Below, one piece after another: positions 36,270 to 56,966 of a stretch of 64,000 bases of DNA. The first letter of the stretch is position 1; each line of letters begins with the position of its first letter. This stretch comes from Nostoc sp. Its GTDB lineage: Bacteria; Cyanobacteriota; Cyanobacteriia; Cyanobacteriales; Nostocaceae. A program made the position numbers and the translations under genes. The notes beneath the pieces are model-generated. The model did not search any database, was not told the origin of the DNA, and saw only the letters and a program-made list of their open reading frames with translations. The stretch covers positions 227,209 through 291,208 of the forward strand of contig NZ_JBALDJ010000114.1 of NCBI RefSeq assembly GCF_036917415.1, in the 5' to 3' direction.

Positions 36270-37679
36270 TCAGCGCCCGATTTCTACGTCTTCAAGGATG
36301 CCAAGTGCATCGGGGATGAGAATGGCTGCACAGTAGTAGGCGCTGACAAGATAAGAAATGACGGCTTTTTCGTTGATACCCATGAATTTGACGGACAAGC
36401 TGGGTTGGTATTCATCAGGGATACCCGTTTTGTGTAGACCTATCACCCCTTGGTTTTCTTCTCCGACACGGAGTACCAAAATAGAGCTAGTACCCTCCTT
36501 GGTAATTGGAATTTTGTTACAAGGAAAAATCGGATAGTTGCGCCATGCAGGTACAATCTTTCCATTGACCTCCCTGCTTGGGGAATAGATTCCACGACGG
36601 TTACACTCCCGCCCAAAAGCAGCGATCGCGCGAGGATGAGCAAGGAAAAAATGGGATTTGCGCCGCCGAGAGAGCAATTCATCAAAATCATCTGGAGTCG
36701 GTGGCCCGGTGCGGGTAAAGATGCGTTGCTTAAGATCGGCATTGTGCAACAACCCGAAATCAGGATTATTCAGCATTTCGTATTCTTGCCGTTCCCGCAA
36801 CGCTTCGATGGTCAGCCGTAGTTGTTGCTCCGTCTGGTTCATGGGTTCGTTGTAGATGTCAGCAACTCGCGTATTCACCCGTAAAACGGTTTGAGCGACG
36901 CTTAACTCATACTCCCGTGGACTCAAGTCGTAATCAACAAATGTCCTGGGTAACTCAGTTTCCGGACTATGACCAGCAGTCATAATGATCTCGGCCTGAT
37001 TATGCTTATCCTGGGGTTTGCTCAACATAGCTCTAAAGCGATCGACCTGAGTCTGCAACGCTTCAGACTGGTTCATCAACTCCCGAAACGCCTGTACTGG
37101 CAAAGACAAAACTATGCAGCGCGTAACAGCTCTGAGGCTAACCTCCCAAGTGTCCTGAGATAGAACTATAGCTTCGCCACCAAAACAATCGCCGTCAGCT
37201 AAGATATCCCGTAAAGCTTCCGCCTCATATTTGCCTGCCTTCAGCTTATTAACTTTACCACGAGCAATTAAGAACACGCGATCGGCTGGTTGACCTTCCT
37301 GTACAATTACCTGACCAGGGGCAAATTCTTGTTGCACAAAGCGGTCTGCCAAGGCGTTGAGTACCTCAATATCCTCAAACCCGCGCAGTAAAGGGAGTTC
37401 ACAAAGTGCTTGGGGAATGACCCGCACCTGAGTCCCTGTATTGGTAAAGCTGACTCGTCCATTACCAACATCATAGGTCAAGCGACGGTTAACCCGATAG
37501 GCCCCACCCCTGATTTGCACCCAAGGCAACATCTGTAACAACCACCTAGGGGTAATGCCCTGCATCTGGGGCGGAGTTTTCGTGGTTTTGGCTAAATTCC
37601 GCGCCCCTTTCGTGCTTAAGCTGATCTGGGGTTGCCCATTTTCTTGGTCTAAATCTGGTCTAATCGAAACATTTGTCAT
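36270..37679 (-). CDS. Family 2B encapsulin shell protein with inserted cNMP-binding domain (Cnb), copy 2
   Basis: [16 protein letters not shown]...YRVNRR, a central cNMP domain, then [25 protein letters not shown]...ERQE...GPPTPDD. Confidence 0.9.
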
Positions 37680-37783: not shown

Positions 37784-39193
37784 TTAGAGACCAATTTCTA
37801 TATCTTCAAGGATGCCTAGTGCATCAGGAACGAGAACGGCTGTAGAGTAGTAAACACTAACCAGGTAGGAAATAACGGCCTTTTCGTTAATCCCCATAAA
37901 ACGGACAGACAAACTAGGCTGATATTGATCGGGAATATTCGTTTTGTGCAGACCAATAACACCCTGGTTGGTTGCTCCCACGCGCATTAACATAATGGAG
38001 CTAGTACGCTCTTTCGTAACGGGAATCTTATTACAAGGATAGATGGGAATACCACGCCAAGCCGGAATTGCACTGTTACCCATCGGGATAGGATCGGGAT
38101 AAAGTCCAAGGTGGTTACATTGCCGACCAAACGCCGCAATGGTGCGGGGATGAGCGAGGAAAAAGCTCGGTTCTTTCCAAACAATGGAGATCAATTCATC
38201 GAGATCGTCGGGAGTTGGGGGACCACTGCGGGTAAAAATGCGTTGTTTGAGGTCAGCATTGTGTAGCAGTCCGAAGTCACGATTGTTCACCATTTCGTAT
38301 TCTTGGCGTTCCCGTAGGCCTTCGATGGTGAGCCGTAATTGTTCCTCAGTCTGGTTCATGGGTTCGTTGTAGAGGTCAGCAACCCGTGTATTAACTTGCA
38401 AAATAGTCTGAGCCACGCTTAACTCATATTCCCGTGGATTCAGTTCATAATCTGCAAACGTCCCAGGTAATACTGCCTCTGGGAAGTGGTCGGCAGAAAT
38501 TCTGATATCAGCTTCCCCTTCTTGGTTTTTGGGTTGCCTCAACTTTACTCTGAATTGATCCACTTGCGCTTGCAGAGCCTCAGACTGGTTAACCAGGTTC
38601 TGAAAGGCTGTTTGAGGTAGAAACAAGATGGTGCAACGGGTAAGAGCAACGAGGGTGACATCCCAAGTATCCTGAGATTCCACTAAAGCGTAATCACCAA
38701 AATGGTCACCATCAGCTAATACAGTCAAAACAACTGGCTCGTCATACTTGCCTGGACTAATTTTATTGACTCTACCATGGGCAATCAGCACTACTTGATC
38801 AGCCGCTCGACCTTCTTGTATGATGACATCTCCGGCTGCAAATTCTCGTTGCACAAATTGACGAGCTAAGGCGTTTAATACCTCGACATCTTCAAATCCC
38901 CGTAACAAAGGTATCTCAGTGAGTTCTTGAGGGATGACCTGTACCTGGGTCCCTACATTGCTAAAGCTGATCCGTCCATCTCCAACCGTATAGGTTAAGC
39001 GACGGTTGACCTGATAGCTACCCCCCACGGTTTCTACCCAAGGCAGCAGTTTTAAGAGCCACCGTGAGGTAATTCCCTGCATCTGGGGTTGGGTTTTGGT
39101 GGTGCCTGCCAATTTCCGCGCCGCTTCGATCTGCAAACTCATTGGCAGTTGCTCAATTTGATTTTCTATAGGAGTGTTTGCTGCATTAGTCAT
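37784..39193 (-). CDS. Family 2B encapsulin shell protein with inserted cNMP-binding domain (Cnb), copy 1
   Basis: Same architecture as the paralog at 36270, also 469 aa. Confidence 0.9.
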
Positions 39194-39261: not shown

Positions 39262-41616
<2,355 letters not shown>

Positions 41617-42444
41617 CTATTTAAACCTATCATCTTAAGCTTATTGTCTTGATTGAAGTCGTGTTGACAAAAAAGAATACATGCGTCAGTCGTCAGAATA
41701 AGCGTATGAATTCTGTACGAGTGGCGGATGAATAAATGGTGAAATACCACACAAAATTGAAAATTTGGTGGTCTACCCTTCTCTACCAGAGGCTGCGCCA
41801 ACGAAAACGTTAAAGGCGAACAATCAGTGGTGAGTCTGTAGCTTGCTTGCCATAGACTATCCCCTACTAATTGATTCTGACTTCTGAATTCTGAATAGCT
41901 GAATTATTCTTCAATTTGATATTTGCGGTTAATCTTTGATGCAATGAAGTTACTCCTTGTAATTAAAAAATTCACAATTGACTCTTGTTAAGTGGCTTGT
42001 TAGTGAAACTTTTATTATGCAAAACTCTTAATAAATATATATTGATTAACTATCAATTACTGCTTTTGAAGGACTAGGTTCACGTGCCGCAGCAACTCGA
42101 ACCCACTAAGAAAATTTGTCATGCACCTTCAGCCAATTATTATATTTCCTCTACTCCAAAAATAGCCATAAACAGTTGTTTATAAGACAATTTCAGCTTT
42201 ATCAATAAAATGCAATGAGAGTTCAAACATTTAGTTATCATTAAGTAGACACTTAAGACTGTATACATATCTGGATTCAAAAAATACTATTATTAGCATA
42301 GGTTAATGCAAACTTTTTTATATTCATTGACTATTTACTAACTATCAATTTACAGCTTATCAACAGGATAATCAAGAGAAACTACAAAATATCCTACTTT
42401 TCCCACCTTTCCTACTTTTTTACGTAAAATAATATTGTATTTAA

Positions 42445-43032
42445 GAGACCATTTATAAAGTAAATCTTTAGAAAACTAGATTAATAGCATAATACGAGTC
42501 ATAACGGCATATATGGCAGCTTCACTCCTGGACTGGGAGATGTTCATAATCCGAACTTCGACGACGGTACTGGTTCAACCAGCAATCATGTTCTTTCTAC
42601 TACCCAACGCTTGGGCAAAACCTGAAATTCTTGAGCGGTACGCCGTATGACTTCAACATCAGCTTGGATCATTAACCAAACTGAAAGCGCAAATTTATCA
42701 CCGTCATAACCAGAATCAAACCACATGATTTTGACTTTTTCTAGTAATTCTGGACGCTCTTCTAAAAGTTCCATCAAAGCATAGGCAGCAAGTACTCGTT
42801 CTGAACCATTTGCTTCACTGACAACCACTTTCAACAACAATCCCAGACTATCAACCCAAGTCTGCCGCTTTCTACCTTTTACTTTTTTAGGACTTACGCA
42901 AAAACCCTCTCAAACTCTCATTTCTCCGTGACCTCTGCGTCCTCTGTGGTTCGTTTTCCGTTACCTGTGCGTAAGTCCTATTTTTTACCGCCATCGAAGC
43001 CGTACACATCCCACGCCAGTTGCTTCTCCCCA
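42445..43032 (-). mobile_element. Truncated, frameshifted IS5-family (IS1031-group) transposase remnant with its right end
   Basis: GFDGGKK/VKGRKR..VDSLGLLL, DSGY, LPKRWVVERT, SEAAIYAVM. Terminal GAGACCATTTATAAAGTAAA. Confidence 0.85.
42889..42979. mobile_element. 91-bp MITE, copy 2, inserted in the IS5 remnant
   Basis: AGGACTTACGCA...TGCGTAAGTCCT interrupts the GGKKVKGRKR codons. Confidence 0.88.
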
Positions 43033-43286
43033 CGCAAACATTACGCACAACTTGAACAAGAATCGAAGCCGTACACATCCCACGCCAGTTGCTTCTCCCA
43101 AGGGGAGAGCCTGCGCGAACAAGTCGGCAGAGCCGCCCAACGCACTGGCTCCCTTTTTTCAGTCGTTCTTATCGATTGACTGTCTGCGGCAATGCCTACG
43201 GCGAGCTTTGCTAACTGCCAGGGTTAAGTTGCTACGGTAAGCTTTCATACCACTCTCTCGGTGCTGTTTACTATCTATTCACAGTC

Positions 43287-43417
43287 TAAGTAGGTAGGCG
43301 TAAATAATTATTGTTGGGATAAGGCAGGGGGCAGGGAGCAGGGAGCAGGGGGAGAAAGAGTTTGAGCCTTATTTACTTTTCTTTACACAGTTTGATTTTA
43401 TTGCACCAACTTACTTA
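43287..43417. mobile_element. MITE-like element with TAAGTAG ends carrying an STRR tract
   Basis: taagtaggtaggcgtaaataatt ... ccaacttactta. The same left end recurs at 56967. Confidence 0.55.
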
Positions 43418-43464
43418 TACTGAGAAAGCTTTTTTACAACATTCTCGACTTTTCAAACAACCTC

Positions 43465-44517
43465 TTAATTGAAACCGATAACTCCCGGAATTTCAAGAAC
43501 AAAATCTGCCCCATATACGGATGCAGGAGTCTGAAATCCGACCTTAACTTCGCCTTTAATTACCCGTTTGATAACTGCTATAGCCGCTAATGCCGTAAAA
43601 TCGTATGCTTCCGGCCCTAAGAGCTTTGCACTTACTTGTTGACCAGTTTCATCCTCAGCAATACCAATTACTCTAACTTGCCCCTTGGCTCGTTCTGCTG
43701 CCGTTGGCCCAGTCGGAAGAGTTTTAATTAGACTTGCTAAAGCACTTTGGAATAAAGACGAGTTAAATAACCATCCCAAATACTGGCTTGACTCCATCAG
43801 GAAGCGCACAGGATTAGGAAATACGGTATAAACCTCAATATTGGGGATACCCGTAGTTTGGAACGCAGTGATAATATCAGCACGCCAAGGGTTTGTTACT
43901 GCTGTCACCGGGCCATAACCAAAATCAATTTTACGCCTTTTTGATGCTGGACGAGATGAGATCAGCTTACCTGCTTCTCGGACTACCCCGATATGATGTA
44001 AAGTTGGCAGTACTGTATTTGCAGTTCCTTGAGATACACCTCCCACTGTTTCATAGATTAAAATAAGTCGTGTTGCAATCGCTAACTTCTGTTTGAGGTA
44101 AGCAGCTACACAATCAGTAGGGACGACCCCAAATCCCACACCAGGGAGAAGCATTATCCCTGCACTTTTAGCTTCAGTATCTCGTGCTAGTAGCGCCTGA
44201 AATTCAGGTACTTCGCCAGCTATGTCTAAATAGTGAGTTTTAGTTTGGAGGCAGGCATCGACAAGTGGCTTTGAGGTTTTGGAGAAAGGCCCAGAGCAGT
44301 TGATGACAGCAATTATATCCTCAAGAGAACGAGCGATCGCTTGCGGATCGTCTAGGCCAAAAACCCGAAAGTCCAAACTTAATTCATCGGCCACTGCTGC
44401 TAGTGAACTTTGATTGCGTCCAGCTAAAATTAATTCCAGTCCGTTATTTTTAGCAGATTCAGCAATGAGTTTTCCAGCATAGCCAGTTGCACCATACAAT
44501 AACACCCTTGATGTCAT
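43465..44517 (-). CDS. Saccharopine-dehydrogenase-like NAD(P)-dependent oxidoreductase
   Basis: YGATGYAG, LAGRN, NCSGPF, HYLDIAGE, GVGFGVVPTD, GFQTPA. Confidence 0.88.
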   Translation of the reverse strand: MTSRVLLYGATGYAGKLIAESAKNNGLELILAGRNQSSLAAVADELSLDFRVFGLDDPQAIARSLEDIIAVINCSGPFSKTSKPLVDACLQTKTHYLDIAGEVPEFQALLARDTEAKSAGIMLLPGVGFGVVPTDCVAAYLKQKLAIATRLILIYETVGGVSQGTANTVLPTLHHIGVVREAGKLISSRPASKRRKIDFGYGPVTAVTNPWRADIITAFQTTGIPNIEVYTVFPNPVRFLMESSQYLGWLFNSSLFQSALASLIKTLPTGPTAAERAKGQVRVIGIAEDETGQQVSAKLLGPEAYDFTALAAIAVIKRVIKGEVKVGFQTPASVYGADFVLEIPGVIGFN

Positions 44518-44529
44518 TATTATCACCAG

Positions 44530-44838
44530 CTAGGAGTTGTTTGCAATCTGCTGCCATAACCTGACTTCAGGTGGTTCAACTAAAAATTGTCCTGACTTTT
44601 CGCTCAAAGCTTTAATATACGGCTGCTCTAAGTGTTGAGCCAAAATTTCTTGGCTGACCCAGTTTTCATGCAACAGAAACAAAGATGGCTCTTCAACAGA
44701 TTGATGTAAATCGTAATTAATACAACCTTCTTCTGCAAGTGTAAGAGCTATTACAGATTGAAATTCCTGTTTGAATCCCTCCTCCAAACCCGGCTTTACT
44801 TTTAATCGAGCGGTGACTGTTACTTGCTGATTTGACAT
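44530..44838 (-). CDS. ABM-fold (putative quinol monooxygenase) protein
   Basis: EEGCINYDLHQ...FLLHENW..Q..LAQHL. ATG after AGAGGA. Confidence 0.88.
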   Translation of the reverse strand: MSNQQVTVTARLKVKPGLEEGFKQEFQSVIALTLAEEGCINYDLHQSVEEPSLFLLHENWVSQEILAQHLEQPYIKALSEKSGQFLVEPPEVRLWQQIANNS

Positions 44839-45003
44839 TGTTATTCCTCTTTTTTCTGAGATTAGTTCAACGGGCAGCGCCCAGGATTCAGGATTCCTCA
44901 ATTTCAGCACAGCAAGTTGGGGAATCTTGGAGGCTGCGGGACTGGGTACTGAAAAAGAATTTTTTTTAAGATTTGCTTGGAATCTGAATTCCCAGTCCCC
45001 AGT

Positions 45004-46644
45004 TCAAGTATTGATGCTGTTAATAATTTGCGAAGGCTTAAAGTAGTTGTAAGGTATGGGACGAGTTTGATTTCTAATATCTATTTGCCGTTCTATTTCA
45101 TGCAAATTCTGTTGGAATTGCACCACAATTTCCTGCGCCAATGGATCGGCAAACTCCTCATCATAAAAACCCAATTTGTCATAGTGGTACGATGTTAAAA
45201 TCTCAGTCCACATCACCTGATCGGCAGCTTGTTTAAAGGGAGGAAGTATCTTCATGATAGTTTCCAAATCCACACCCTTAGTTTCTGGAATTGGGTGGTA
45301 GGCTGCATAGGGCATATTGGGTACAAAAGCCATATATTCGTACTGAGAAAAATTCAAAGCAGAGTGTAGAGGAGCGCAAGTGAATACTACCACACTGATG
45401 ATTTCAATCAGTTGTTCTAAAGTCTCAATTTTGTCTGGCATTCCCTTGACTTTACCACCATCTTGGGCCACTAATTCTCTAGCCCAATTTTGCAACTCAT
45501 AGTCATTAATTAGCTCCTGTGAGGTTTTGTAATAGAGTTGTAAATATTCAGACACAAACTTTTCGACGGCATTCCAGATTAATATGCCATCGTCCCGGAA
45601 AGGGAAGTGCGGTAAAATTTCTGGGTCATCCGTTCGACGACTTTTTATTAACCGAGGGAAAGTAAACTTTTCAACACTCCATTCTTCATAAACCTTCGCC
45701 ACAAACCCAAGAGACTCCGCCAATGAACCTGCCATAAACTCATCAACCGGGCCTCCCGGCTGTAAAAACTGAGTGCGCCCCAAATCGTTATCAAATAACA
45801 TAAAACGGAAGTGGGGTTTTAAGAGTAAGGCGATGGGATGATTTTCTGCTAGTTGCCGCGCAGTTACAATTGCAAACGGAGCCATAACTGCATGGGTATA
45901 GGCAAAATGACTACCCAATTCTTGATGGTTGCCATCAGCAATTTGAACGCAGGTTTTTGCCAAAAACCAATCTAAATGGGGGTCAGCGGGTGTATAAATT
46001 ACACTTTTTGCGCCAGAGTCATGATTAATCTGGATGGCAACAGGCACTAGAGAACCACCATTAGAACTATCATTACTTTGCCAATAAAATAGAGCTTGTG
46101 GCTTGGGAAGGTACTTTTTAACATTATCGTAGACACCACCTTGAATATCAGATAACAAAGGGTAATCTAAGAAATACAGCTTGCCTTCCTTGAGTGCCTT
46201 TTCCAAAGTAAATTCTGTCCCTGCAACCTTCTGAAAATGGAAATCCGTGACAGCAAAATTATCAGGTAATACATCAATTCTTCGGATAGCTAGTGGGTTC
46301 GCTCCAGAGAGTCGTTGTTCTGCAAAACAAGAGTCTGTTTTGTAATTTTTTATGACATCAGGTTTTGGTAGTAGTGATAAGAGTTCTTCATATTCTTCTA
46401 ATTCATCTAATGGGTCTAAGAAGTTTCTGGCTTTAGCAGCTAGCATATTTGGTGCAAGAGTTGCCATACTTGCCAAACGTTTAGCAGTATATTCCGCCGA
46501 GAATATTTCCTTATGAGGAACTTTATCAATAACTGGTAGAGGAGCTAGATAATTGTAATTAAATTTGTACTCTTCTCGATTTTTATCTAGCCAATTGATT
46601 CGGACATCAACATCAGGATCTTTTTGTGGTAAGTATGGTTTCAC
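45004..46644 (-). CDS. lox: Lipoxygenase (cyanobacterial type)
   Basis: FAEQRLSGANP, WFLAK, QELGSHFAYTH (two His ligands), HSALNFSQ (His/Asn ligands), FPFRDDG, PNMP. GTG start after GGAG. Confidence 0.93.
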   Translation of the reverse strand: MKPYLPQKDPDVDVRINWLDKNREEYKFNYNYLAPLPVIDKVPHKEIFSAEYTAKRLASMATLAPNMLAAKARNFLDPLDELEEYEELLSLLPKPDVIKNYKTDSCFAEQRLSGANPLAIRRIDVLPDNFAVTDFHFQKVAGTEFTLEKALKEGKLYFLDYPLLSDIQGGVYDNVKKYLPKPQALFYWQSNDSSNGGSLVPVAIQINHDSGAKSVIYTPADPHLDWFLAKTCVQIADGNHQELGSHFAYTHAVMAPFAIVTARQLAENHPIALLLKPHFRFMLFDNDLGRTQFLQPGGPVDEFMAGSLAESLGFVAKVYEEWSVEKFTFPRLIKSRRTDDPEILPHFPFRDDGILIWNAVEKFVSEYLQLYYKTSQELINDYELQNWARELVAQDGGKVKGMPDKIETLEQLIEIISVVVFTCAPLHSALNFSQYEYMAFVPNMPYAAYHPIPETKGVDLETIMKILPPFKQAADQVMWTEILTSYHYDKLGFYDEEFADPLAQEIVVQFQQNLHEIERQIDIRNQTRPIPYNYFKPSQIINSINT

Positions 46645-46736
46645 GATTATCTCCAATTCGGTTTTTGAGCGTTTGGTAGTTAATGATTAACGTCAGAAAG
46701 GTGCTGAATCACATCAGGATGTAGCAACCACTTGAA

Positions 46737-48227
46737 TTACAGAGTTTTCAGATACTCAATCAAAGCTTTTTTATTCTCATCAGATAAATCAGTGCCATAA
46801 ATATGTCCCTGATTTGAATTAGCAGTTACCGTCGTATCGTATTTAAAACCTATAGCTTTGGCTTCATCTCCCTCAGTAATGAAACCAACTTTTTTCGGGT
46901 CGTAGACATCATATCCCCGATAGAAAACTTGAGGACGATTCTCTGGTTTTTCTAACAAATTTTGTAGAGATGGGACTGAACCATTATGTAAATATGGCGC
47001 TCTTAACCATAATCCATCTAGGGAAACAGATACATACCCATTGGTTTTACGTAAGTTTTTAAAGTCCCAAGGGTAGCCATCACCAAAATGATTGTAAGTA
47101 TCTGCTCCTTCTTGCGTCCACATATCTAACCGATGGCGGTCAGTTCCCACTTCTTCCACAGGGATAACAGTACCCGTTCTTTCCCCACCAAAAGCGTGAC
47201 AAGATGCACAAGTATTAGCAAAAATTTGACTTCCTTTTGCAGCCACTTGCCGATCAACTGCAAATGGATACTTGGGAGGTGGTAGTTCTTGAATAAAATC
47301 TTCTACCCGTTGTAAATCGGCTACAGGAAGTGATTTTTTGGTAGCACCATCACCAATTGCTCCAGTTTGAACAGTTTCTGTTAGTGAAGTTTCTAACCCA
47401 TCCCAATGGAGTGCAAATCCTTTGTGCATCTTTTGATTCCAAAGAGGCATCATATCAGAGTTACCGATAGTGTTATCTTTGGGCAACTTCAAAGTATTGA
47501 ATTTAACCGGATTAAAAGGGTCAATTCGACCAGGGCCCCAATTAGGACGAGAATCTGTCCAACTATAGTCTTCTTTTTGTTGCAGCAGCGCTTTCTTAGT
47601 TTGAGGAATTAGCAGATAGCGATAAAGTAAATTTTCTAACCACGAAAGCTGATAGTTATATTTGATTTCATCAAGGATATAATCTGCTGTAAATCTGGCA
47701 TCACCAGCAGTTGCACTCAAAAATCGTAAATAGCCTTGTGAATCAAACTTATTAGCAGGAGCAGCGGCCACAATTGTGGGTTTATCTTTCTCTGTTTTTC
47801 TGTAGGTGGCAGTATGGCAAACAGCGCAAGTTATACCGACGCGAGGAAAGCCAATGGTTTTTTTCGTAAACCCAACTGGCATTTCTTTACCCTCTTCCCA
47901 TGTGATTCCCAAGGAAGTATAACCACCTGGCCCTGGTAATTTATCAGGGAATATTCGTGGTAGTACCAGCCAAATCCAATAGGGAACACCTTGCGCTTCT
48001 TCTGTGCCAATAGAACCATATTTAAAGTGTTCTTCAGGCGATTCATAATATGTAGGAACCTCTCGAAAAAGGTTGTACCATCCCACATATCCAACTACAC
48101 CAGCTAAAAGGATCGCAATTAAAACAATGGTTGTGATTACCCTACCTATTTGATTTTTGAGTATTGTCATGGCACTCTTTTGCTCCTTTGCAGAAGAATC
48201 TGTTTGTAGTGGAGGCAATATACCCAC
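46737..48227 (-). CDS. Membrane-anchored di-heme cytochrome c protein, RoxA/FadCCP-like (paralog B)
   Basis: N-terminal TM, CAVCH and CASCH heme motifs, RAPYLHNGSVP. Alternative start at 48170. Confidence 0.82.
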   Translation of the reverse strand: MGILPPLQTDSSAKEQKSAMTILKNQIGRVITTIVLIAILLAGVVGYVGWYNLFREVPTYYESPEEHFKYGSIGTEEAQGVPYWIWLVLPRIFPDKLPGPGGYTSLGITWEEGKEMPVGFTKKTIGFPRVGITCAVCHTATYRKTEKDKPTIVAAAPANKFDSQGYLRFLSATAGDARFTADYILDEIKYNYQLSWLENLLYRYLLIPQTKKALLQQKEDYSWTDSRPNWGPGRIDPFNPVKFNTLKLPKDNTIGNSDMMPLWNQKMHKGFALHWDGLETSLTETVQTGAIGDGATKKSLPVADLQRVEDFIQELPPPKYPFAVDRQVAAKGSQIFANTCASCHAFGGERTGTVIPVEEVGTDRHRLDMWTQEGADTYNHFGDGYPWDFKNLRKTNGYVSVSLDGLWLRAPYLHNGSVPSLQNLLEKPENRPQVFYRGYDVYDPKKVGFITEGDEAKAIGFKYDTTVTANSNQGHIYGTDLSDENKKALIEYLKTL

Positions 48228-48259
48228 ACTAGACTAGGTATAAAATTAGGAGAATTGCT

Positions 48260-48670
48260 TCACTGGAATTGCAGCGATCGCATTTTGCTACGCATTGCTA
48301 GTGTCAGAAGAATTACTTCCGCTAATCCAAAAAACAGGTCTACAAAGGCAATGGATAAAAATCCTTTATCTTGCCCAAAGAAAAACACTGCACAAATGAA
48401 AAATGTCGATCCAAAAGCTCTTGAAGGAAATATTGATATCCAGGCGGTTGCTTGATATCGGTACGGATCAAGTGCTCCAGGAACATAAAATGCACTAATA
48501 ATAAACAACAACATTCCCGCAGCGCGAACCCAGATAATTGGCACTGGTATATGCATTTGAAGGAACGTCAGCATTAGTTCTGGAAAGAAGCAAGAGGGAA
48601 TGACAAAAAGCATATTAACAATAATGCCAAGCCAAGTAACGCGACTAAACCATTTAGCGTAATTATTCAT
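48260..48670 (-). CDS. Small four-TM membrane protein
   Basis: 136 aa with four hydrophobic segments. Sits 12 and 32 bp from the two di-heme genes. Confidence 0.8.
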   Translation of the reverse strand: MNNYAKWFSRVTWLGIIVNMLFVIPSCFFPELMLTFLQMHIPVPIIWVRAAGMLLFIISAFYVPGALDPYRYQATAWISIFPSRAFGSTFFICAVFFFGQDKGFLSIAFVDLFFGLAEVILLTLAMRSKMRSLQFQ

Positions 48671-48682
48671 TTTTCTCTCCTT

Positions 48683-50149
48683 TTAAAGCTTTTTCATGTA
48701 CTCAACTAGTGCATCTTTATCTTCTGTGGGAAGTTCAACACCATACAAGTGACCACTGTTACTATTTCCAGGTTTTGTGGTATCGAACTTAAAGTATTGT
48801 TTACCGTCTTCTACACCGACATCAGATACAAAACCAACTTTTGCTCTGTCAATCACATCGTAGCCACGATAGAATTCTTTGGGTCTATTTTCTGGTGTTT
48901 CTAGTAAATCTCGTAAGGTCGGGACTGAGCCATTGTGCAGATAAGGGCCGCGTAACCAAACACCATCAAGGGGCATATTTGCATAGCCATTCGTTTTGCG
49001 GAAATTCTTAAAGCGCCACGGATAGCCTGTATACAGAGTATTTTGATTAGACATCGTTTTGTAGGTATATGAGTCGAGACGATGGGGGTCTGTACCAATT
49101 TCTTGAATTGGTACAACTTTGCCTGTATAAGCACTACCAAAAGCATGACAACTAGCACAATTACTTTCAAAAAGTTGTTCTCCCTTCACTGCGATAGTTT
49201 CGTTAACTTCGTAGGGATATTTTGGTGGTGGTAGTTCCCAAAGCCAATCGGCAACTCTCTGAATTCGAGGCAAATCAATCGTTGTGGGCGTGACTCCAGC
49301 GCCTAAAGCCGCACTCTTATTTCGTTCATTAACGGAAGTGTTATTACCATCCCAATGTAACTGCAATCCTTCACGGGGTTTTTGATTCCAAACTGAGGGA
49401 AAATCAGAAGTACCAATCAGTTCATCCTCACGCAATTTATCCATTGGGAAATGGAATTGAATTGCTTTATAAGGATTAAAAGTATCTACTCTTCCTGGTC
49501 CCCAATCTGGTTGTTTTTCAACGAAATCAAGTCGAGATGCCTGATTAATTAGTGCATCTCTAGTTTGAGGAATTGCAATGAAGCGATAAAGTAATTTTTC
49601 AACGGGATTAAGACCGCCACTAATTTTTTCAATTTCTGGCAACATCCGGTTAGCAGTAAAGCGCTCATCTACACCAACTGCTGATAAGAATTTGATATAT
49701 CCCTGCAAATTAACCACATTAGCAGGCATTGTTGTGATGACTTGATGTTCGCTATTAGGGGTATTTCGCAGCGTTCCTGTATGACATACAGCACAATTCA
49801 ACCCAACTCTATCGATAAAGACTCGCCGTTGCGAAAAACCTATAGGTAAATCTTTGTCAGGTTCTTTGATAAATCCCAGAGAAGTATAACCTTTTCCAGG
49901 TAATTTATCTGGGAATAATTCTGGTAAAACTTTCCAAATCCAGTAAGGGACACCATTGACTGGTTCGCTGCCGATTGAACCATATTTAAAGTGGTTTTCA
50001 ATATCAGCATAATCCACTGGAGAGTTAGACAAAACAGGCCAAAGGAAAAATACTGCTACTGCTACAATACCTACAATCACAACCCAAATCCGCTGGAAAA
50101 CTCCCTTGATTGAGGTTGAAAGTAGGGTAGGGTTTGTTTGTTCAGTCAT
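48683..50149 (-). CDS. Membrane-anchored di-heme cytochrome c protein, RoxA/FadCCP-like (paralog A)
   Basis: N-terminal TM, CAVCH and CASCH, RGPYLHNGSVP. Shares HFKYGSIG..GVPYWIW and WGPGR.D.FNP with paralog B. Confidence 0.82.
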   Translation of the reverse strand: MTEQTNPTLLSTSIKGVFQRIWVVIVGIVAVAVFFLWPVLSNSPVDYADIENHFKYGSIGSEPVNGVPYWIWKVLPELFPDKLPGKGYTSLGFIKEPDKDLPIGFSQRRVFIDRVGLNCAVCHTGTLRNTPNSEHQVITTMPANVVNLQGYIKFLSAVGVDERFTANRMLPEIEKISGGLNPVEKLLYRFIAIPQTRDALINQASRLDFVEKQPDWGPGRVDTFNPYKAIQFHFPMDKLREDELIGTSDFPSVWNQKPREGLQLHWDGNNTSVNERNKSAALGAGVTPTTIDLPRIQRVADWLWELPPPKYPYEVNETIAVKGEQLFESNCASCHAFGSAYTGKVVPIQEIGTDPHRLDSYTYKTMSNQNTLYTGYPWRFKNFRKTNGYANMPLDGVWLRGPYLHNGSVPTLRDLLETPENRPKEFYRGYDVIDRAKVGFVSDVGVEDGKQYFKFDTTKPGNSNSGHLYGVELPTEDKDALVEYMKKL

Positions 50150-50215
50150 GAAACACTCCCCATTTTGTCGAGATTATTTGTAAGCGAAATTGTCGATGTG
50201 ATCCGCATCGCTTTT

Positions 50216-51610
50216 TTATCTAGATAAATTTGCAAACTGAGTTTCATGAAAGACTGACATTACTTCTTCCATCATCTCTTCATAACTATTGAAGCGATCC
50301 TGTTCGTAACAGCCCAAGGGATTTTCAATTACATTCAGCAGACATTTATTGCAATAGGTACAGGGTTTATCTGCCAGGTCTTTACCTGCTTTAAAAGATT
50401 TAACTAGATCATTGTTAGCAATTAATGTACGAGCCATTGTGACGCCATCGCAATAATGTTCGTTAATTGCCTGACGAATATAAGAAGCTTGTTGTAAACC
50501 ACCTGTACATAATACGGGAATATTAACGTGCTTTTTAATTTCTCTGGAATCTAGTAAGTTCCTGCCTTGGTTCTCTATTAGTAGCTGTTTGATTTTAGGG
50601 TCTTTTACATCATCACCACTAAATGCTTGAGGAGGTAATTGCTTTTTCACACGATTCCATAAAAAATTGAACAGTGGATGCAAAAATGCTTTGCGAAATA
50701 AAATGTAGTTGCGTGTGGTTTCGACACCACTTGACAACATGGCATCATAAGTTTTAGTAATTACATCAAAATTAAAATCACCAATGGGATTGAGTGGGTG
50801 AGGAAATAAGCTACCAGTTGACACATGGACGGCATCAGCCCCAGCTTCTTCTGCCCATTGACAAACTTGGATGGAATCTTCTATGGTGTTACCTGGTTTT
50901 TCCCAAAAGGTGACGGCGTTGTTATAGTCAACGGCACTAATTTTGAATTGCAGGTGAAAGTCGTTGCCTACTTCTTTGCGGATTGCTCTAATTACATCTA
51001 GCAAAAACCGTGCTCGATTCTCTAATGAACCACCATATTCATCTTGACGGTCGTTAATTCCAGAACTGAGAAATTGGTTAAAAAGATATCCATTAGCACT
51101 GTGCAATTCCACTCCATCTAAACCTGCTTCACGGGCACGTCTAGCACCATCGGCAAAGTATTGGATTGTTTCTTTTATCTCTGTTAGTGTCATCGCTTGA
51201 CACAGAAAGCCGTGGAATGGCTCAGTTTGGCTGGTGGAACTTAACGCTTTTTTTCCTGAGTTCTCTATACCACCAATGTCCTGCTGTCGCCCAGAATGAC
51301 TTAGTTGCAAGATCAATTTACAGTCATATTCGTGGACTTTTTCTCCTACTTTTCGCCAAAAAGGAATGCGCTCATCGCAGTCTATTGTGGCGTAATTGGG
51401 CATAATTCGTCCCCGGATGGCGACTGGGACAAAGGAAGTAATAATAGCCCCCACACCACCACGAGCAAACTTTTCTTCCCAGTTGATTCGGGCTTGAGTA
51501 CCTGAACCATCATAGTTATCCCATCTTCCAGAAATACTTGAGCGAAATATCCGATTTTTTACTGTGAGATTACGGAATCTCAATGGTTCAAAGATAATAT
51601 CGTTTTCCAT
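50216..51610 (-). CDS. NADH:flavin oxidoreductase (Old Yellow Enzyme / dienoyl-CoA-reductase-like barrel)
   Basis: LTVKNRIFRS, ARGGVG, QLSHSGRQ, GLDGVELHSANGYLFNQFLS, C-terminal CTYCNKC. Confidence 0.9.
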   Translation of the reverse strand: MENDIIFEPLRFRNLTVKNRIFRSSISGRWDNYDGSGTQARINWEEKFARGGVGAIITSFVPVAIRGRIMPNYATIDCDERIPFWRKVGEKVHEYDCKLILQLSHSGRQQDIGGIENSGKKALSSTSQTEPFHGFLCQAMTLTEIKETIQYFADGARRAREAGLDGVELHSANGYLFNQFLSSGINDRQDEYGGSLENRARFLLDVIRAIRKEVGNDFHLQFKISAVDYNNAVTFWEKPGNTIEDSIQVCQWAEEAGADAVHVSTGSLFPHPLNPIGDFNFDVITKTYDAMLSSGVETTRNYILFRKAFLHPLFNFLWNRVKKQLPPQAFSGDDVKDPKIKQLLIENQGRNLLDSREIKKHVNIPVLCTGGLQQASYIRQAINEHYCDGVTMARTLIANNDLVKSFKAGKDLADKPCTYCNKCLLNVIENPLGCYEQDRFNSYEEMMEEVMSVFHETQFANLSR

Positions 51611-52038
51611 GTGTTCCTCTGTCTTTTATATTATTTCGGCAATAAAATTAGGCGTCAAAATTATTCGTAGCACTAACAGTCTCGCCAAAGAACTATTATT
51701 TCTAGTGTCTCTGGGAGGGCAGTTTTTTATGTCTACAAATCTACAGTGGCGATTTTCGGATGGGAGCGTTAAGTATTAAGTTTTTGTTACTTAAACTTAC
51801 CTACCAAGTTTCAGCATGGATATTTATCCTTATTGGTTTTTACAGTTATATAAAGACTTTTGCAGTTTGTAAAGCAATGGGATTTACAGAGCAATTCTTA
51901 AAAAAAGTGAAAATTTCCGTCTTTTATTTCTCTTAAAAGGTTAAGGCAACCTTAAAAGTAGCTGCTAACAATTTGTTACAAACCTAACCAAGTAGGTAGG
52001 AAATCGATACAACCATAGCAAATTGGTTATTGAACACC

Positions 52039-52054
52039 ATTGTAAATTTACAAT
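52039..52054. promoter_or_regulatory. Perfect 16-bp palindrome in the divergent promoter region (candidate operator)
   Basis: ATTGTAAATTTACAAT. Confidence 0.4.
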
Positions 52055-52278
52055 TTTTTAAATTTTTGATTTAGAAATGTATAAAAGTTTATTGATGACG
52101 TTTTGCAAATTTGTGTAGTAACTTCATATATAACGAACCTCAGTCAGGTACATTCTAAATCATCAAAATCTCCTAAGACTAAATCTGGAAAATGGGAAAT
52201 TAGTGATGAAGCATTAGTGTACCTCTGTAAAAGTGAGATGCAGTGGAAAAGGTTTAGGTGTTACAACCAGAGAGTTTT

Positions 52279-54288
52279 ATGAAAAAGACAAGTCTAATTT
52301 TTAAGGGCTGTCTGCTCGTCCTATTCGTGACTATGTTTATAGTCTGCGGCTTTTATGGAACGCCTACAGCTCTAGCCGATGAGTATAGTGAAACACCTGC
52401 GCCCATAAGTACTGAGTATTCGGATACGGGTGTATCTGAATACCCTGATAACTGTGAAGGTATCGGTTATCTCCCAGATTATACAAAGGAGAATTTGACA
52501 GATGCCGAAAAGCGGGGTCGTTGTACTTGGTACTTATGGACTGGCGGTAACGCCAAGTACTATCGCGATTTAGCGAAGCGAACGCATGGTGGTGTTGACC
52601 TGCTAAAGCTGATTGACTCGCGTGTGCATGACGAGCGATTGCAACGTTATGGCGCAATTAACGATCCTGGATGTGAAAAAGCAACAGCGCCAGATGAATA
52701 CGGTTTGTGGCTAGATAAGTGTAAAGACCGACTCTCAACTGGCGTTATTGGGTTGCGTAAGTTCCAAAACCCCAACTTCGACTCGGCAAAATGGAACCCT
52801 GTTGAATATGCCAAAACCTCACAAATTGAGCCTCCCTACGTAATCGGGCAGTCTTGTGCTATTTGTCACGTAGCATTAGATCCCCTCAATCCACCCAAAG
52901 ATAAGGAACACCCGAAATGGCAAAACCTTGTAGCAGCATTAGGTAATCAGTACATCAAGGAAAACAAATTATTTGCATCCAGCGTCGGGGAAAATAGTTT
53001 TGTTAAGCAAGTACTTGACTCTCAAAAACCGGGAACTTCTGATACTTCTCGGATTGCGACCGATCACATCAACAATCCGAATGCGATTAATTCCATTTTT
53101 AATTTAGGCGATCGCCCCAAATATCCAGAGGTGATGAACGATGGTTCAACCAAGGATGTCAATCATATTCTCAAGGATGGTGCAGACTCTACAGGAGTGC
53201 CAATTGCCTCATTACGCGTCTACGTCAACATTGGGATGTGCGGCGATTACTGGACAAGTCTCCATGAGCCTTTATTAGGCAGAACTCCCCAAAAACCTTT
53301 TGACATCGAAAAGGCACGTCAGGAGTGCGAAGGCTGGAGACAGACAGAAACACGTATGGCTGATGCCGAAGCATTCTTAAAAACCATTAAGCCGATGCAC
53401 CTGAAAGATGCACCGGCTGGTGAAAAGTTCTTGACTAAAGATGAAGAAGTTCTCAAACGTGGCAAGCTGGTTTTTGCCAGCACTTGTGCTAGTTGCCATT
53501 CCAGCAAAATGCCACCTGCTGCGATCGCTGCTGACTCCGAACAGGCTCAGAAATGGTACGAAGAGTCTGTACTCAGTAGTAATTTTCTCGACCACAACTT
53601 CTTGTCTGATGATCAGCGTTATCCGGTGACACTAATTGGTACCAATGCGGCGCGATCGCTAGGAACAAATGCCGCTAAGGGTCATATTTGGGATCAGTTC
53701 TCATCGAAGACTTACAAAGAACTGCCTTCACCAGGTACTTTGACGCTGTACAATCCCTTCGATAAGAAAAAACCCATCGAATTTAAGATACCTGACGGCG
53801 GTTTGGGATATTACCGTACACCTTCGCTAGTGAGCATTTGGGCAACAGCACCACTTCTGCACAACAACACGCTAGGACTTTACAACGAAGATCCTTCAGT
53901 CAAAGGACGTGTAGAAGCCTATACTGATGCTATGGAAAAGCTGCTGTGGCCTGAAAAGCGTGAGGGGATTATCAGCAGGACAGATCGAGATACCAAATTA
54001 GAGCTTCCCCCAGGAGATCCGAATCCGAGATTTAAACTTCCTGTTCCTAAAGGTACGCCTGTGAATTTGCTAGCAAGCATCAATATTAGAGAGGCGATAA
54101 CATCTCTCAATCTCAGCAGCCTTTTCCAAGACTTGAAACCAGGCGGTGGAATTAAGGGTAAGTTGGCACGTGTGCTTTTAAGAGCCAACAAATCTCCTGA
54201 TTTTGTGGAAGATGAGGGTCATTATTTTGGCTCAAATCTGCCAGATGAAGATAAGAAAGCGCTAATTGAGTTCGTGAAAACGTTCTAA
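52279..54288 (+). CDS. Exported di-heme cytochrome c protein, RoxA/FadCCP-like (paralog C, larger)
   Basis: Signal peptide ending ALA-D, CAICH and CASCH, YYRTPSLVSIWATAPLLHNN, GHYFG...DKKALIEFVKTF. Confidence 0.8.
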   Translation: MKKTSLIFKGCLLVLFVTMFIVCGFYGTPTALADEYSETPAPISTEYSDTGVSEYPDNCEGIGYLPDYTKENLTDAEKRGRCTWYLWTGGNAKYYRDLAKRTHGGVDLLKLIDSRVHDERLQRYGAINDPGCEKATAPDEYGLWLDKCKDRLSTGVIGLRKFQNPNFDSAKWNPVEYAKTSQIEPPYVIGQSCAICHVALDPLNPPKDKEHPKWQNLVAALGNQYIKENKLFASSVGENSFVKQVLDSQKPGTSDTSRIATDHINNPNAINSIFNLGDRPKYPEVMNDGSTKDVNHILKDGADSTGVPIASLRVYVNIGMCGDYWTSLHEPLLGRTPQKPFDIEKARQECEGWRQTETRMADAEAFLKTIKPMHLKDAPAGEKFLTKDEEVLKRGKLVFASTCASCHSSKMPPAAIAADSEQAQKWYEESVLSSNFLDHNFLSDDQRYPVTLIGTNAARSLGTNAAKGHIWDQFSSKTYKELPSPGTLTLYNPFDKKKPIEFKIPDGGLGYYRTPSLVSIWATAPLLHNNTLGLYNEDPSVKGRVEAYTDAMEKLLWPEKREGIISRTDRDTKLELPPGDPNPRFKLPVPKGTPVNLLASINIREAITSLNLSSLFQDLKPGGGIKGKLARVLLRANKSPDFVEDEGHYFGSNLPDEDKKALIEFVKTF

Positions 54289-54454: not shown

Positions 54455-55927
54455 ATGCAGTATTTACCAATCATCTTTGTTCGTGGATATGCAGGTACAC
54501 AAAAAGACGTTGAGCAAACAGTTGACGATCCCTTTTATGGATTCAATAGTGGTTCAACCCATATTCGAGTAGATGAGAAGGAAAATCCTCAGAAGTTTTT
54601 TTTCGAGAGTCCATTGCTGCGGCTAATGACCGATCATGGTTATCAACCGATTGTTGACAATCAGAATGTGAGCAATCAGATTAAAAGATTGTCCAATCAA
54701 CTTGATAAAACTATTTGGATCTATCGATTTTATGATATATCTACACCTAGTTTTGGCTCCTCAAGTGTAGTCCGACAGGAGATGGAGGAGATAGCTAAGG
54801 GTTTAAGAGACTTGATCCAAAATGTCAAGGAAACGACTGGTGCTGACAAAATTTATCTTGTAGCCCATTCGATGGGTGGTCTTGTTTGTCGCAGCTTGAT
54901 TCAAAAAATTTATCCAGAACAAGGCGATCAAGCTGCTGATAGCATTGACAAATTCTTTACCTACGCTACACCTCATGGTGGCATTTATTTTGAGGTTGGG
55001 AATGGCTTGCTCGAAAACCTTAGAGACACGTTCCAATTGAATAATTCTGATGACTTTGGCCCTCAACGGATGTACCAGTATTTAACACCTGATATCAAGC
55101 CCAAGGATGAATTACCCGATAACTTTCAGCTAGAAAAACTACAAAACATAGAGAATGCATTTCCACCAAACCGCGTTTTTTCTTTGATTGGCACTAATGC
55201 ACATGATTATGAAGAAGCTTTTGGTTTCTCACGCAAGACTGTGGGGGTGAAAAGTGATGGTTTAGTTCAGATTGATAAAGCTTATATCACGGGATCTCAT
55301 CGTGCTTATGTTCATCGCTCTCATGGTGGGCGTTATGGCATCTTGAACTCCGAAGAAGGTTATCAAAACCTGCAACGATTTTTGTTTGGTGATATCCAGG
55401 TGAAACTCTCTCTTAGCAATGTTGAGTTAAAAGACCTGGACAAGAATTTTTATCAACTGGAAACTAGGGTGGCTTTGCGTGGTCTTCCTATTCCTATATA
55501 TGAGCAAGCGATCGCTCATTATTGCCCAATTACACAAGAGTTAACCCGAACAGATAAACCTGTTCCTCTATTTACAGCTTTCTTAATCCCAAGAAACTCA
55601 GCCAATGACGATAATACCTGTAGATATGCTCTGCGTTTAGCACTGCATTCGTTCACAAAACAAGAGACGAATTGGTTACGCGACCATCATCTCGACCAAG
55701 TACCCGTGTGGTCTGACTATCTAATTACTGATATTGCCGAATCAAATAGCACTTATGAGGCTAAATACAGTTGGAATTCTGATGAAAAAGAGCCAGTAAC
55801 AAAGTTAAATCCGACTTCAGAATCCAGTTCGGGTGTATATGTTGCGTATGTTTACTTACCTGAACGCGGGCAAAAAGTTTTAGGAACAAATGCGGCAGTT
55901 CGTTTAGAAATTTCCCAATGGCAATAA
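54455..55927 (+). CDS. Alpha/beta-hydrolase (lipase/PGAP1-like) with an extra C-terminal domain
   Basis: IIFVRGY oxyanion strand, LVAHSMGGLVCR nucleophile elbow, ATPHGG, KSDGLV. Confidence 0.8.
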   Translation: MQYLPIIFVRGYAGTQKDVEQTVDDPFYGFNSGSTHIRVDEKENPQKFFFESPLLRLMTDHGYQPIVDNQNVSNQIKRLSNQLDKTIWIYRFYDISTPSFGSSSVVRQEMEEIAKGLRDLIQNVKETTGADKIYLVAHSMGGLVCRSLIQKIYPEQGDQAADSIDKFFTYATPHGGIYFEVGNGLLENLRDTFQLNNSDDFGPQRMYQYLTPDIKPKDELPDNFQLEKLQNIENAFPPNRVFSLIGTNAHDYEEAFGFSRKTVGVKSDGLVQIDKAYITGSHRAYVHRSHGGRYGILNSEEGYQNLQRFLFGDIQVKLSLSNVELKDLDKNFYQLETRVALRGLPIPIYEQAIAHYCPITQELTRTDKPVPLFTAFLIPRNSANDDNTCRYALRLALHSFTKQETNWLRDHHLDQVPVWSDYLITDIAESNSTYEAKYSWNSDEKEPVTKLNPTSESSSGVYVAYVYLPERGQKVLGTNAAVRLEISQWQ

Positions 55928-56174: not shown

Positions 56175-56966
56175 ATGCAGAGTAATCGCAAACAAACGGC
56201 TCTTATTACTGGTGCATCTGGCGGCATCGGTTATGAATTCGTGAAATTATTTGCTCAGGATGGTTACAATCTTGTATTGGTAGCTAGAAGTGTGGAAAAA
56301 TTAAATAAAATTGCCGATGAATTTAAAAATAAATTTGGCATTGATGTCAAAATTATTTCCAAAGATTTATCTAACCCATCAGCCCCAGAAGAAATTTTCA
56401 GGGAGCTAGAACAAGCATCGATCAATGTTGATGTGTTGGTGAACAATGCTGGGTTTGCTACCTACGGATTATTTAATGAAATTGACCTGAATGCTGAAAT
56501 GCAATTGCTACAAGTCAATATCTTATGTCTGACACATTTAACCAAGTTATTTCTTAAAGGTATGGTTAAGCGGGGGTCTGGAAAAATATTAAACTTGGCC
56601 TCCACTGCTGCTTTTCAACCAGGGCCACTGATGGCAGTATACTACGCTAGTAAAGCCTATGTTTTATCGTTCTCAGAAGCGATCGCTAATGAATTAGAAG
56701 GCACAGGCGTTTCTGTAACAGCACTTTGTCCAGGGCCTACAGAATCTGGTTTTCAACAAAGAGCTGCAATGGAAGACTCAAAGTTGGTAAGCGGTCAAAA
56801 AATTATGACTGCGGAAACAGTAGCCCAAATCGGCTATCGTGGTCTATTTGAAAACAAAACTGTTGTTGTTCCTGGAATTAAAAATAAGCTCCTTGCTGAA
56901 TCTGTAAGATTTACTCCTAGAAAGCTAGTGACTAAACTAGTCAGAAATATGCAGGAAAGCAAGTAA
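56175..56966 (+). CDS. Short-chain dehydrogenase/reductase (DltE/YqjQ-like)
   Basis: TGASGGIG, NNAG, YYASK, ALCPGPT. Confidence 0.92.
   Translation: MQSNRKQTALITGASGGIGYEFVKLFAQDGYNLVLVARSVEKLNKIADEFKNKFGIDVKIISKDLSNPSAPEEIFRELEQASINVDVLVNNAGFATYGLFNEIDLNAEMQLLQVNILCLTHLTKLFLKGMVKRGSGKILNLASTAAFQPGPLMAVYYASKAYVLSFSEAIANELEGTGVSVTALCPGPTESGFQQRAAMEDSKLVSGQKIMTAETVAQIGYRGLFENKTVVVPGIKNKLLAESVRFTPRKLVTKLVRNMQESK

Follow-up and report, generated by a model that had tools for sequence, protein, structure and literature searches.

The window analysed here is a stretch of 64,000 nucleotides from Nostoc sp. (assembly GCF_036917415.1, contig NZ_JBALDJ010000114.1, positions 227,209 to 291,208 of the forward strand), and its positions 46,737 to 54,288 carry three genes for di-haem proteins, which we call A, B and C. 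They lie in a conserved cluster that includes genes for a lipoxygenase, an Fe-S flavoprotein of the old yellow enzyme (OYE) family and a lipase, none of which had been mentioned in a preliminary description of this DNA. Judging from a predicted structure, A and B belong to a family with a RoxA-like fold to none of whose members a function has yet been assigned; what is new is the presence of RoxA/FadCcp-type di-haem enzymes in a new family and in a new pathway context. The core of the cluster, which recurs in several bacterial phyla, probably represents a pathway for oxidised fatty acids that has so far gone undescribed, and the strongest functional clue is that two unrelated families of enzymes forming fatty-acid hydroperoxides are encoded beside the di-haem genes in different lineages. 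The reading that we favour, with a probability of roughly one half, is a lipid-oxidation or oxylipin pathway whose di-haem enzymes, facing outward, would act on fatty-acid hydroperoxides or, where a dedicated dioxygenase is lacking, would oxygenate acyl chains on their own, while the OYE and associated reductases would reduce the products.

The di-haem proteins A, B and C

All three genes are intact open reading frames, situated where the preliminary description had placed them: A at 46737-48227 (minus strand, 496 residues as called), B at 48683-50149 (minus strand, 488 residues) and C at 52258-54288 (plus strand, 676 residues). The features that had been attributed to them (two CxxCH motifs, a P(Y/L)LHN(G/N) motif and a hydrophobic segment at the N-terminus) could be located in every one. 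There are exactly two CxxCH sites in each protein, namely CAVCH at residues 134-138 (nt 47814-47828) and CASCH at 340-344 (nt 47196-47210) in A, CAVCH at 119-123 (nt 49781-49795) and CASCH at 331-335 (nt 49145-49159) in B, and CAICH at 200-204 (nt 52855-52869) and CASCH at 410-414 (nt 53485-53499) in C. The motif PYLHNG is found at residue 411 of A and residue 402 of B (nt 48929-48946), and PLLHNN at residue 532 of C; B also contains HWDG (nt 49346-49357), and a C-terminal GH is present in B (nt 48749-48754) and likewise in A and in C. The four haem-binding cysteines of A and of B are the only ones that these two proteins possess. The hydrophobic segment, of which there is one per protein, is a signal-anchor helix with positive charges on its N-terminal side in A and B; in C it resembles a signal peptide, ends in ALA|DE, and the protein is predicted to be secreted. 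From their sequences, A, B and C are therefore predicted to be haem-c proteins matured outside the cytoplasm, with A and B tethered by a single helix and C soluble. Since the orthologues of A begin at Met20 (nt 48170), this is probably also its true start.

A and B had been described as close paralogues, and they are: they share 52% identity over 446 residues (BLASTP, E 7e-170), and the four motifs quoted for them (HFKYGSIG, GVPYWIW, WGPGR.D.FNP and LHWDG) are conserved across the 57 homologous sequences on which our conservation analysis, profile and tree are based. Both score 53-55 bits (A 53.5) with PF21419 (RoxA-like_Cyt-c), whose cut-off is 26.7, and both exceed the cut-off of 150 bits of NF040606, "di-heme cytochrome C peroxidase" (A 185, B 187.9 bits); because a full-length NF040606 member from another cyanobacterium reaches 321 bits, A and B would be peripheral members of that family. 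An AlphaFold2 model of B, built on the alignment of 57 sequences (pLDDT 88.6, pTM 0.87), has a single significant neighbour in the PDB according to Foldseek, which is RoxA (4b2n; E 7.3e-10, probability 1.0, TMq 0.57), the next matches (MauG, hydrazine synthase gamma and Neisseria cytochrome c peroxidase) standing at E >=0.01. The profile of the 57 homologues likewise retrieves RoxA only from the PDB (E 2.2e-22). The cut-offs of the equivalog models of RoxA, RoxB and RoxC (NF050033, NF050034 and NF051462; 900-1000 bits) are not reached by any of the three proteins: A scores 62, 69 and 75 bits, B 50, 50 and 73 bits, and C at most 19. Nor does any of A, B and C match PF03150 (CCP_MauG), the domain of ordinary peroxidases of this kind, at E up to 0.01. 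The proposal of extracytoplasmic di-haem proteins from the RoxA/MauG/cytochrome c peroxidase (CCP) superfamily thus holds, with RoxA as the nearest solved structure for A and B. The family is a large one, with 5,224 clusters (50% identity) matching at E <=0.001.

A separate protein of 720 residues in the same genome (G000:C113:115443-117605, that is, locus L096:8437-10599, minus strand) does match PF03150, at 84.6 bits; it has a weak RoxA-like C-terminal motif and adjoins a gene of the beta-lactamase family and an EamA transporter gene.

The maximum-likelihood tree of the 57 sequences separates an A clade from a B clade (support 100/99), and each clade contains both Cyanobacteria and Acidobacteriota, which suggests that A and B are old, co-inherited paralogues. 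Only three positions are fixed differently between the two clades, and the conserved His, Trp and Glu residues are all common to both. The preliminary description had cited the paralogues PA2077 and PA2078 of Pseudomonas, which differ at the Trp that bridges the haems, PA2078 being devoid of it and its haems dispensable (PMC4496055). With so few fixed differences, and with the bridging Trp kept in both A and B, the present pair does not look like that situation, and the division into a dioxygenase and a hydroperoxide isomerase that had been suggested for it is weakened; its sequences appear equally compatible with a heterodimer and with two substrate specificities.

The histidines conserved among the A and B sequences are, in B numbering, H123 and H335 of the CxxCH sites, H405 of PYLHNG, H467 and H265, to which one may add H53 (89%). 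In RoxA, His641 is an axial ligand, Trp302 lies between the haems, Phe301 lines the distal pocket and Phe317 is essential (PMC4496055). All residue equivalences given here are taken from HMMER sequence alignments to RoxA and not from model coordinates. In these alignments the invariant H467 corresponds to His641, W266 (93% conserved) to Trp302 and the invariant H265 to Phe301; Glu275 is conserved at 96%. The RoxA residue F317 is aligned with the invariant Ala281 or with an insertion, depending on the alignment, and it has no counterpart in A or B in the sense that none of the 22 residues after WDG is aromatic. As for methionines, not one reaches a conservation of 80% among the 57 sequences. 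This pattern suggests that the second haem is bis-His as in RoxA, without a His/Met electron-entry haem of the CCP type, and that the distal side, with its polar His and Glu, would suit peroxide chemistry better than the hydrophobic O2 cage of RoxA.

The case of C is different. It had been called larger and more distant, and indeed BLASTP gives only local matches between this protein and A or B. Profile-profile comparison aligns the C-terminal haem domain with a probability of 98.9 (E 1e-17); the N-terminal half is weakly matched (E 1.3e-4), with the first CxxCH in register. C thus appears to be a remote relative of A and B that can be aligned with confidence over its C-terminal half only. The RoxA-like label that had been given to the whole trio stands for A and B, by PF21419, NF040606 and fold, and is weakened for C, which remains below the cut-offs (NF040606 44 bits, PF21419 20.5 bits) and whose model (pLDDT 81) has no significant structural neighbour in the PDB, the best being MauG at E 0.029. 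In an alignment of low confidence C has MNDG where A and B have HWDG, and it appears to lack their distal His and inter-haem Trp. It contains four further invariant cysteines besides the haem-binding ones, which probably form two disulfides. In Acidobacteriota (Pyrinomonadaceae and relatives; loci L002, L057, L069 and L070) the third di-haem gene is found upstream of the OYE gene, and its product, which shares 46-50% identity with A, is a paralogue of the A/B type instead of a C-type protein; three di-haem proteins around one OYE therefore recur with non-orthologous third members.

A conserved module and its changing dioxygenases

Two divergent gene sets, seven genes on the minus strand and three on the plus strand, span 43.4-57.0 kb of the window. 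The minus-strand operon begins with the OYE gene (50216-51610, 464 residues; PF00724 E 2.5e-64) and continues with B, a small membrane protein of 136 residues and about four hydrophobic segments (48260-48670), A, a mini-lipoxygenase of 550 residues without PLAT domain (45004-46656; PF00305 E 3.8e-62), a small ABM-domain (antibiotic biosynthesis monooxygenase-like) protein (44530-44910; PF03992 E 3.9e-18) and, as its last gene, an NAD(P)-binding reductase with a saccharopine-dehydrogenase-like fold (43465-44526; PF03435 E 3.9e-12). The plus-strand set, divergent from the OYE operon, consists of C, a lipase-like alpha/beta-hydrolase (54455-55927) and a short-chain dehydrogenase/reductase (SDR; 56175-56966; PF00106 E 4e-48). 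The nearest protein matches of the region, at 96-97% identity, come from Nostoc cyanobionts.

To what extent this arrangement is conserved can be seen from 80 related loci in GTDB species genomes, taken with flanks of 10 kb. These loci come from Cyanobacteria, Acidobacteriota, Verrucomicrobiota and a genome labelled Deferribacteres. In 76 of them B is immediately preceded by the OYE gene, and the remaining four end at a contig edge; 74 loci have A, and 66 have the small membrane protein. The segment OYE-B-small membrane protein-A is inherited as a unit. Other genes are less constant: C occurs in 54 loci, all cyanobacterial, the SDR in 48 (including Moorena and Hydrococcus) and the lipase in 40, whereas the lipoxygenase, with 37 loci, is confined to Nostocales and Aliterella; the ABM protein co-occurs with the lipoxygenase in 34 loci, and the reductase is found in 34. 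The Nostocales module has gained the mini-lipoxygenase, the ABM protein, reductases, the lipase and C. A GMC oxidoreductase and a protein of the animal-haem-peroxidase family are also recurrent neighbours, and the second of these is a homologue of fatty-acid alpha-dioxygenases (E 6.7e-117 to rice alpha-DOX, 4kvj), encoded beside the module in Moorena, Xenococcaceae, Dactylococcopsis and Pyrinomonadaceae. Elsewhere than in Nostocales, it is these alpha-dioxygenase homologues that take the place of the lipoxygenase.

A second set of 80 more divergent and independent loci from metagenomes, many of them on contigs of just 2-5 kb, contains tandem A/B-type pairs in 62 cases, an OYE in 29, a C-like protein in 29, alpha-dioxygenase homologues in 10 and P450s in four, and several of the loci with an alpha-dioxygenase homologue also have a P450. 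The cyanobacteria with the module belong to Nostocales, Coleofasciculaceae, Xenococcaceae, Hydrococcus, Leptolyngbyaceae and Pseudanabaenales, and the other bacteria to Pyrinomonadaceae, Bryobacteraceae and Solibacteraceae, together with one metagenome-assembled genome (MAG) of Verrucomicrobiota and one labelled Deferribacteres. Many of the related Nostoc loci are those of lichen and plant cyanobionts. The distribution is nevertheless patchy, with only 9 of 301 sampled cyanobacterial genomes above the NF040606 cut-off; the control genomes gave no NF040606 match, and with PF21419 sub-threshold matches only (in E. coli and Bacteroides).

RNA-seq assemblies from related Nostoc strains (about 94-95% identical) contain a contig (45105-49295) that extends over the lipoxygenase, A, the membrane protein and a portion of B; another takes in B together with the OYE as far as 51873, and C is covered by a third from 52035 onwards. 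These contigs are consistent with two divergent transcription units. Scans of the region for promoters, terminators and Rfam families gave nothing above chance.

The OYE combines an Oxidored_FMN barrel, carrying the HSANGY substrate/proton-donor motif of the OYE1 type, with a C-terminal CxxCxxC...C predicted to bind a 4Fe-4S cluster (PCTYCNxCL..PLGCY in at least 90% of 42 orthologues). The motif fits the reduction of enones or enals. The NAD(P)H/FAD domain of FadH/BaiCD-type enzymes is absent (at most 193 bits against full-length cut-offs of 750-825), and no export signal was found in the protein or its orthologues; the idea of a Tat-exported OYE was rejected, a Tat-like N-terminal extension being present in 0 of the 42 orthologues from genome loci. 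As for the small membrane protein, it has no match in Pfam or NCBIfam and no conserved His, Cys or Met, and is thus unlikely to bind a redox cofactor; an electron wire through it was discarded for want of conserved cofactor ligands.

The lipoxygenase has its nearest solved relative in CspLOX2 of Cyanothece (PDB 5med/5mef, E ~1e-130; 5mef 3.4e-130), an enzyme that makes 9R-, 11R- and 13S-hydroperoxides of linoleate (PMC11719350). The iron ligands H250, H255, H431 and N435 are kept, as is the C-terminal carboxylate; the protein and all its orthologues end in ...INSINT, so that the last residue is Thr and not the Ile that commonly provides this iron ligand. The lipase-like hydrolase, related to the DUF676, PGAP1, Lipase_2 and LCAT families, has an AHSMGG nucleophile elbow and no signal peptide.

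Some variants of the module deserve mention. The metagenome protein P0244 (1025 residues) joins an OYE/Fe-S part to a di-haem domain of the B type by way of a transmembrane helix, an order that makes sense topologically. Another, P0255 (1066 residues, found on two contigs), consists of two copies of the small membrane protein, a domain of 290 residues, a transmembrane helix and a di-haem domain, and could be an artefact of gene calling. A Nostoc sub-clade that is devoid of the lipoxygenase, the ABM protein and the reductase (L027-L038 and L053; for example L027:12943-14223) has the small membrane protein fused to the same 290-residue domain, with the GMC oxidoreductase gene coming next. This domain is 60-65% identical across Chloroflexota, Actinobacteria, Planctomycetes and Acidobacteria, is absent from the genome of the window, and has no match in Pfam, NCBIfam or the PDB, for which reason a catalase-like reading of it was abandoned; the arrangement resembles another accessory cassette that occupies this position in place of the missing genes.

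Next to the cluster, about 1.85 kb of the window (41614-43464), between the geosmin synthase gene and the oxylipin-type genes, contain no open reading frame of 100 or more residues, and the GC skew is strongly negative (-0.16) at 42-44 kb. Since geosmin and encapsulin genes adjoin the cluster in none of the related loci, this interval may be a rearrangement junction. Two Rfam matches to RF02735 (Saccharopolyspora sRNA 350; 58-59 bits), at 37144-37640 and 38649-39157 on the plus strand, are both antisense to the two encapsulin-like genes and probably reflect a likeness to conserved coding sequence and not a real sRNA.

A proposed role in lipid oxidation and competing explanations

Our results concern the gene content and synteny of the cluster, the homology, fold and conserved residues of its products, and its transcription in related strains, and it is from these that we infer substrates, chemistry and the order of steps. 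In the pathway that we propose, the lipase would free polyunsaturated fatty acids from membrane lipids and the mini-lipoxygenase would convert them to hydroperoxides. On the outer side of the membrane, whether periplasmic or lumenal, the di-haem enzymes would then use or rearrange these lipid hydroperoxides, giving keto, epoxy, hydroxy or cleaved aldehyde compounds; where a lineage has no lipoxygenase, oxygenation of the acyl chain may be their own task. In the cytoplasm, finally, the OYE and two or three NAD(P)-dependent reductases would reduce the alpha,beta-unsaturated carbonyls.

One can go further and suppose that the module is a horizontally exchanged bacterial oxylipin system, in which interchangeable dioxygenases (the lipoxygenase in Nostocales, an alpha-dioxygenase with or without a P450 elsewhere) supply hydroperoxides to membrane-anchored, RoxA-like di-haem converters, with the OYE as an OPR-like step. 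We put this forward tentatively, as an extension that is rather less probable than the general proposal. If it were true, the di-haem enzymes would be c-type, extracytoplasmic analogues of CYP74 or of the catalase-related allene oxide synthases/lyases, and the whole a bacterial counterpart of the plant LOX-AOS-OPR route.

Several observations speak against a lipid-oxidation pathway and should be acknowledged. The two main weaknesses are a topological split and the loci devoid of any dioxygenase. The lipoxygenase, the lipase and the OYE carry no export signal while the haem domains face outward, and the intermediates would therefore have to cross the membrane or sit in it. Within 10 kb, many loci (most of the acidobacterial ones, and those of one Nostoc sub-clade, among them) encode no lipoxygenase and no alpha-dioxygenase, and hydroperoxides from a dedicated neighbouring enzyme cannot therefore be the universal substrate. 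In addition, the assignment of the distal pocket comes from alignment to RoxA only, with the F317-equivalent position ambiguous; the RNA evidence consists of assembled contigs from related strains, a weak measure that may include DNA; and the OYE-di-haem fusion P0244 is one sequence on one contig, possibly an artefact of gene calling.

The dioxygenase-free loci would be readily understood if the function of the module were detoxification, A, B and C being peroxidases that reduce H2O2 or photo-oxidative lipid hydroperoxides at the membrane surface, with the OYE and reductases clearing enals and enones; the lipoxygenase and alpha-dioxygenase neighbours would then point to a shared class of substrates and not to a biosynthetic pathway. 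Membership of the CCP/MauG superfamily, the very name of NF040606 and the polar His265 and Glu275, placed where bacterial CCP (bCCP) and MauG have catalytic distal residues, are all in line with this, and PA2078 itself has been proposed to control hydroperoxide toxicity (PMC4496055). We nevertheless consider it unlikely, because there is neither a PF03150 match nor a conserved Met for a high-potential haem (the C-terminal haem being predicted bis-His), because no electron-donor gene is conserved in the module, and because so patchy a distribution is unusual for a general stress defence; moreover, a lipase and a lipoxygenase dedicated to the cluster imply that hydroperoxides are produced deliberately. 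More doubtful still, in our view, is a RoxA-like activity, in which A and B would bind O2 at their N-terminal haem and cleave C=C bonds in polyenes or isoprenoids, with the OYE and SDRs reducing the products. It would accord with the position of RoxA as sole significant relative in the PDB, and aldehydes and ketones as products would go well with the OYE, SDR and GMC oxidoreductase neighbours; the substrates could be carotenoids, polyprenols, long-chain alkenes or what the neighbouring terpene locus produces, a geosmin synthase cluster being located 5 kb away in the window. The scores of 50-75 bits against the 900-1000 bits of the RoxA/B/C equivalogs, the replacement of F301 by an invariant His, the missing aromatic counterpart of the essential F317 and a length some 170-190 residues below that of RoxA all argue otherwise, and it is fatty-acid dioxygenases that recur in the neighbourhood instead of genes for terpenes or carotenoids. 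In particular, the suggestion of the preliminary description that isoprenoid cleavage might be tied to the terpene locus is not borne out: in none of the 80 related loci do the 10-kb flanks contain GeoA, even where a Nostoc locus is about 95% identical to that of the window, and a link to the geosmin locus was rejected on this synteny.

A last explanation would make the di-haem proteins cytochromes of an electron-transfer chain, linking the Fe-S flavoprotein to a periplasmic or lumenal partner in a respiratory or redox-balancing branch. The OYE, with its four-cysteine motif and no NAD(P)H/FAD domain, may indeed need a redox partner, its linkage with B is tight and universal, and there is one fusion of OYE, transmembrane helix and di-haem domain. 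Yet with a cytoplasmic OYE, external haems and nothing in between other than single anchor helices and a ligand-free small protein, no transmembrane path for electrons is apparent; the fold is that of catalytic di-haem enzymes, and no quinol-oxidising or terminal-oxidase partner is conserved. We regard this as very improbable, in agreement with the preliminary description, which had preferred enzymes to electron carriers: the RoxA-type axial His, the inter-haem Trp, the conserved pocket and the absence of a conserved Met point the same way, as does the fact that A and B travel with fatty-acid dioxygenases.

Comparison with known systems

RoxA of Steroidobacter/Xanthomonas sp. 35Y (4b2n), the best fold match to B, is likewise an exported c-type di-haem enzyme, with the inter-haem Trp of WDG, the motif PY(F/L)HNGSVP, the C-terminal GH of the axial His and an ending of the form ...ALIEY(I/M)K(T/K)L. 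It is, however, much longer (662 residues against 488-496) and only 16% identical; it is secreted, whereas A and B are anchored in the membrane, and the genomic partners of A and B are fatty-acid oxygenases and the OYE, not rubber-degradation genes. Classical bCCP and MauG also have two c-haems bridged by the Trp of an xWDG motif and a PYxH(D/N)G motif, and there are the weak Foldseek matches to MauG and Neisseria CCP; A and B differ from them by the lack of a PF03150 match and of a conserved Met or Tyr ligand at the expected place, by about 150 extra residues, by the membrane anchor and by their genomic context.

The only characterised functional analogues of A and B, and the best functional analogy that we can propose, are PA2077 and PA2078, the 10S-dioxygenase and 7,10-diol synthase of the oleate-diol synthase of P. 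aeruginosa ("FadCcp" subfamily); both are di-haem proteins resembling RoxA, by which a fatty-acid hydroperoxide is formed and converted in the periplasm (PMC4496055). By their published features, these too are tandem paralogous extracytoplasmic di-haem proteins with two CxxCH, PY(F/L)HNGSVP and a C-terminal axial His, and they act on, or are associated with, fatty-acid hydroperoxides. The differences are substantial: by the same published features the Pseudomonas proteins have 624-634 residues and cleavable signal peptides, where A and B have 488-496 and an anchor, and 235-245 residues separate their haem motifs, against 206-212 in A and B. They have Gln and not His at the position of RoxA F301, the bridging Trp missing from PA2078 is kept in both A and B, and their operon includes neither an OYE nor a small membrane protein as partner.

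In full-text searches of the literature, neither this module nor any di-haem/lipoxygenase system of cyanobacteria was found to have been described. RoxA-type di-haem oxygenases are so far known for no more than two activities, the cleavage of rubber and the synthesis of oleate diols in Pseudomonas, and the steady linkage to an Fe-S ene-reductase, together with linkages to two unrelated dioxygenases, offers a testable entry into bacterial oxylipin biochemistry. Because many of the related loci belong to lichen or plant cyanobionts, the products in Nostoc could be signalling lipids.

Pairs of a lipoxygenase and a catalase-related haemoprotein are known from Nostoc PCC 7120 and Acaryochloris and from the AOS-LOX of Plexaura, and plants employ the series LOX-CYP74-OPR3. 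Here as there, a lipoxygenase is encoded next to a haem enzyme that converts (or, in our case, would convert) its hydroperoxide, and plants then use a reductase of the OYE family. The haem enzyme of the present cluster, in contrast, is a c-type di-haem protein, extracytoplasmic and unrelated to catalase or P450; if its proposed role is confirmed, it would represent a third type of haem enzyme processing fatty-acid hydroperoxides, besides P450/CYP74 and the catalase-related proteins.

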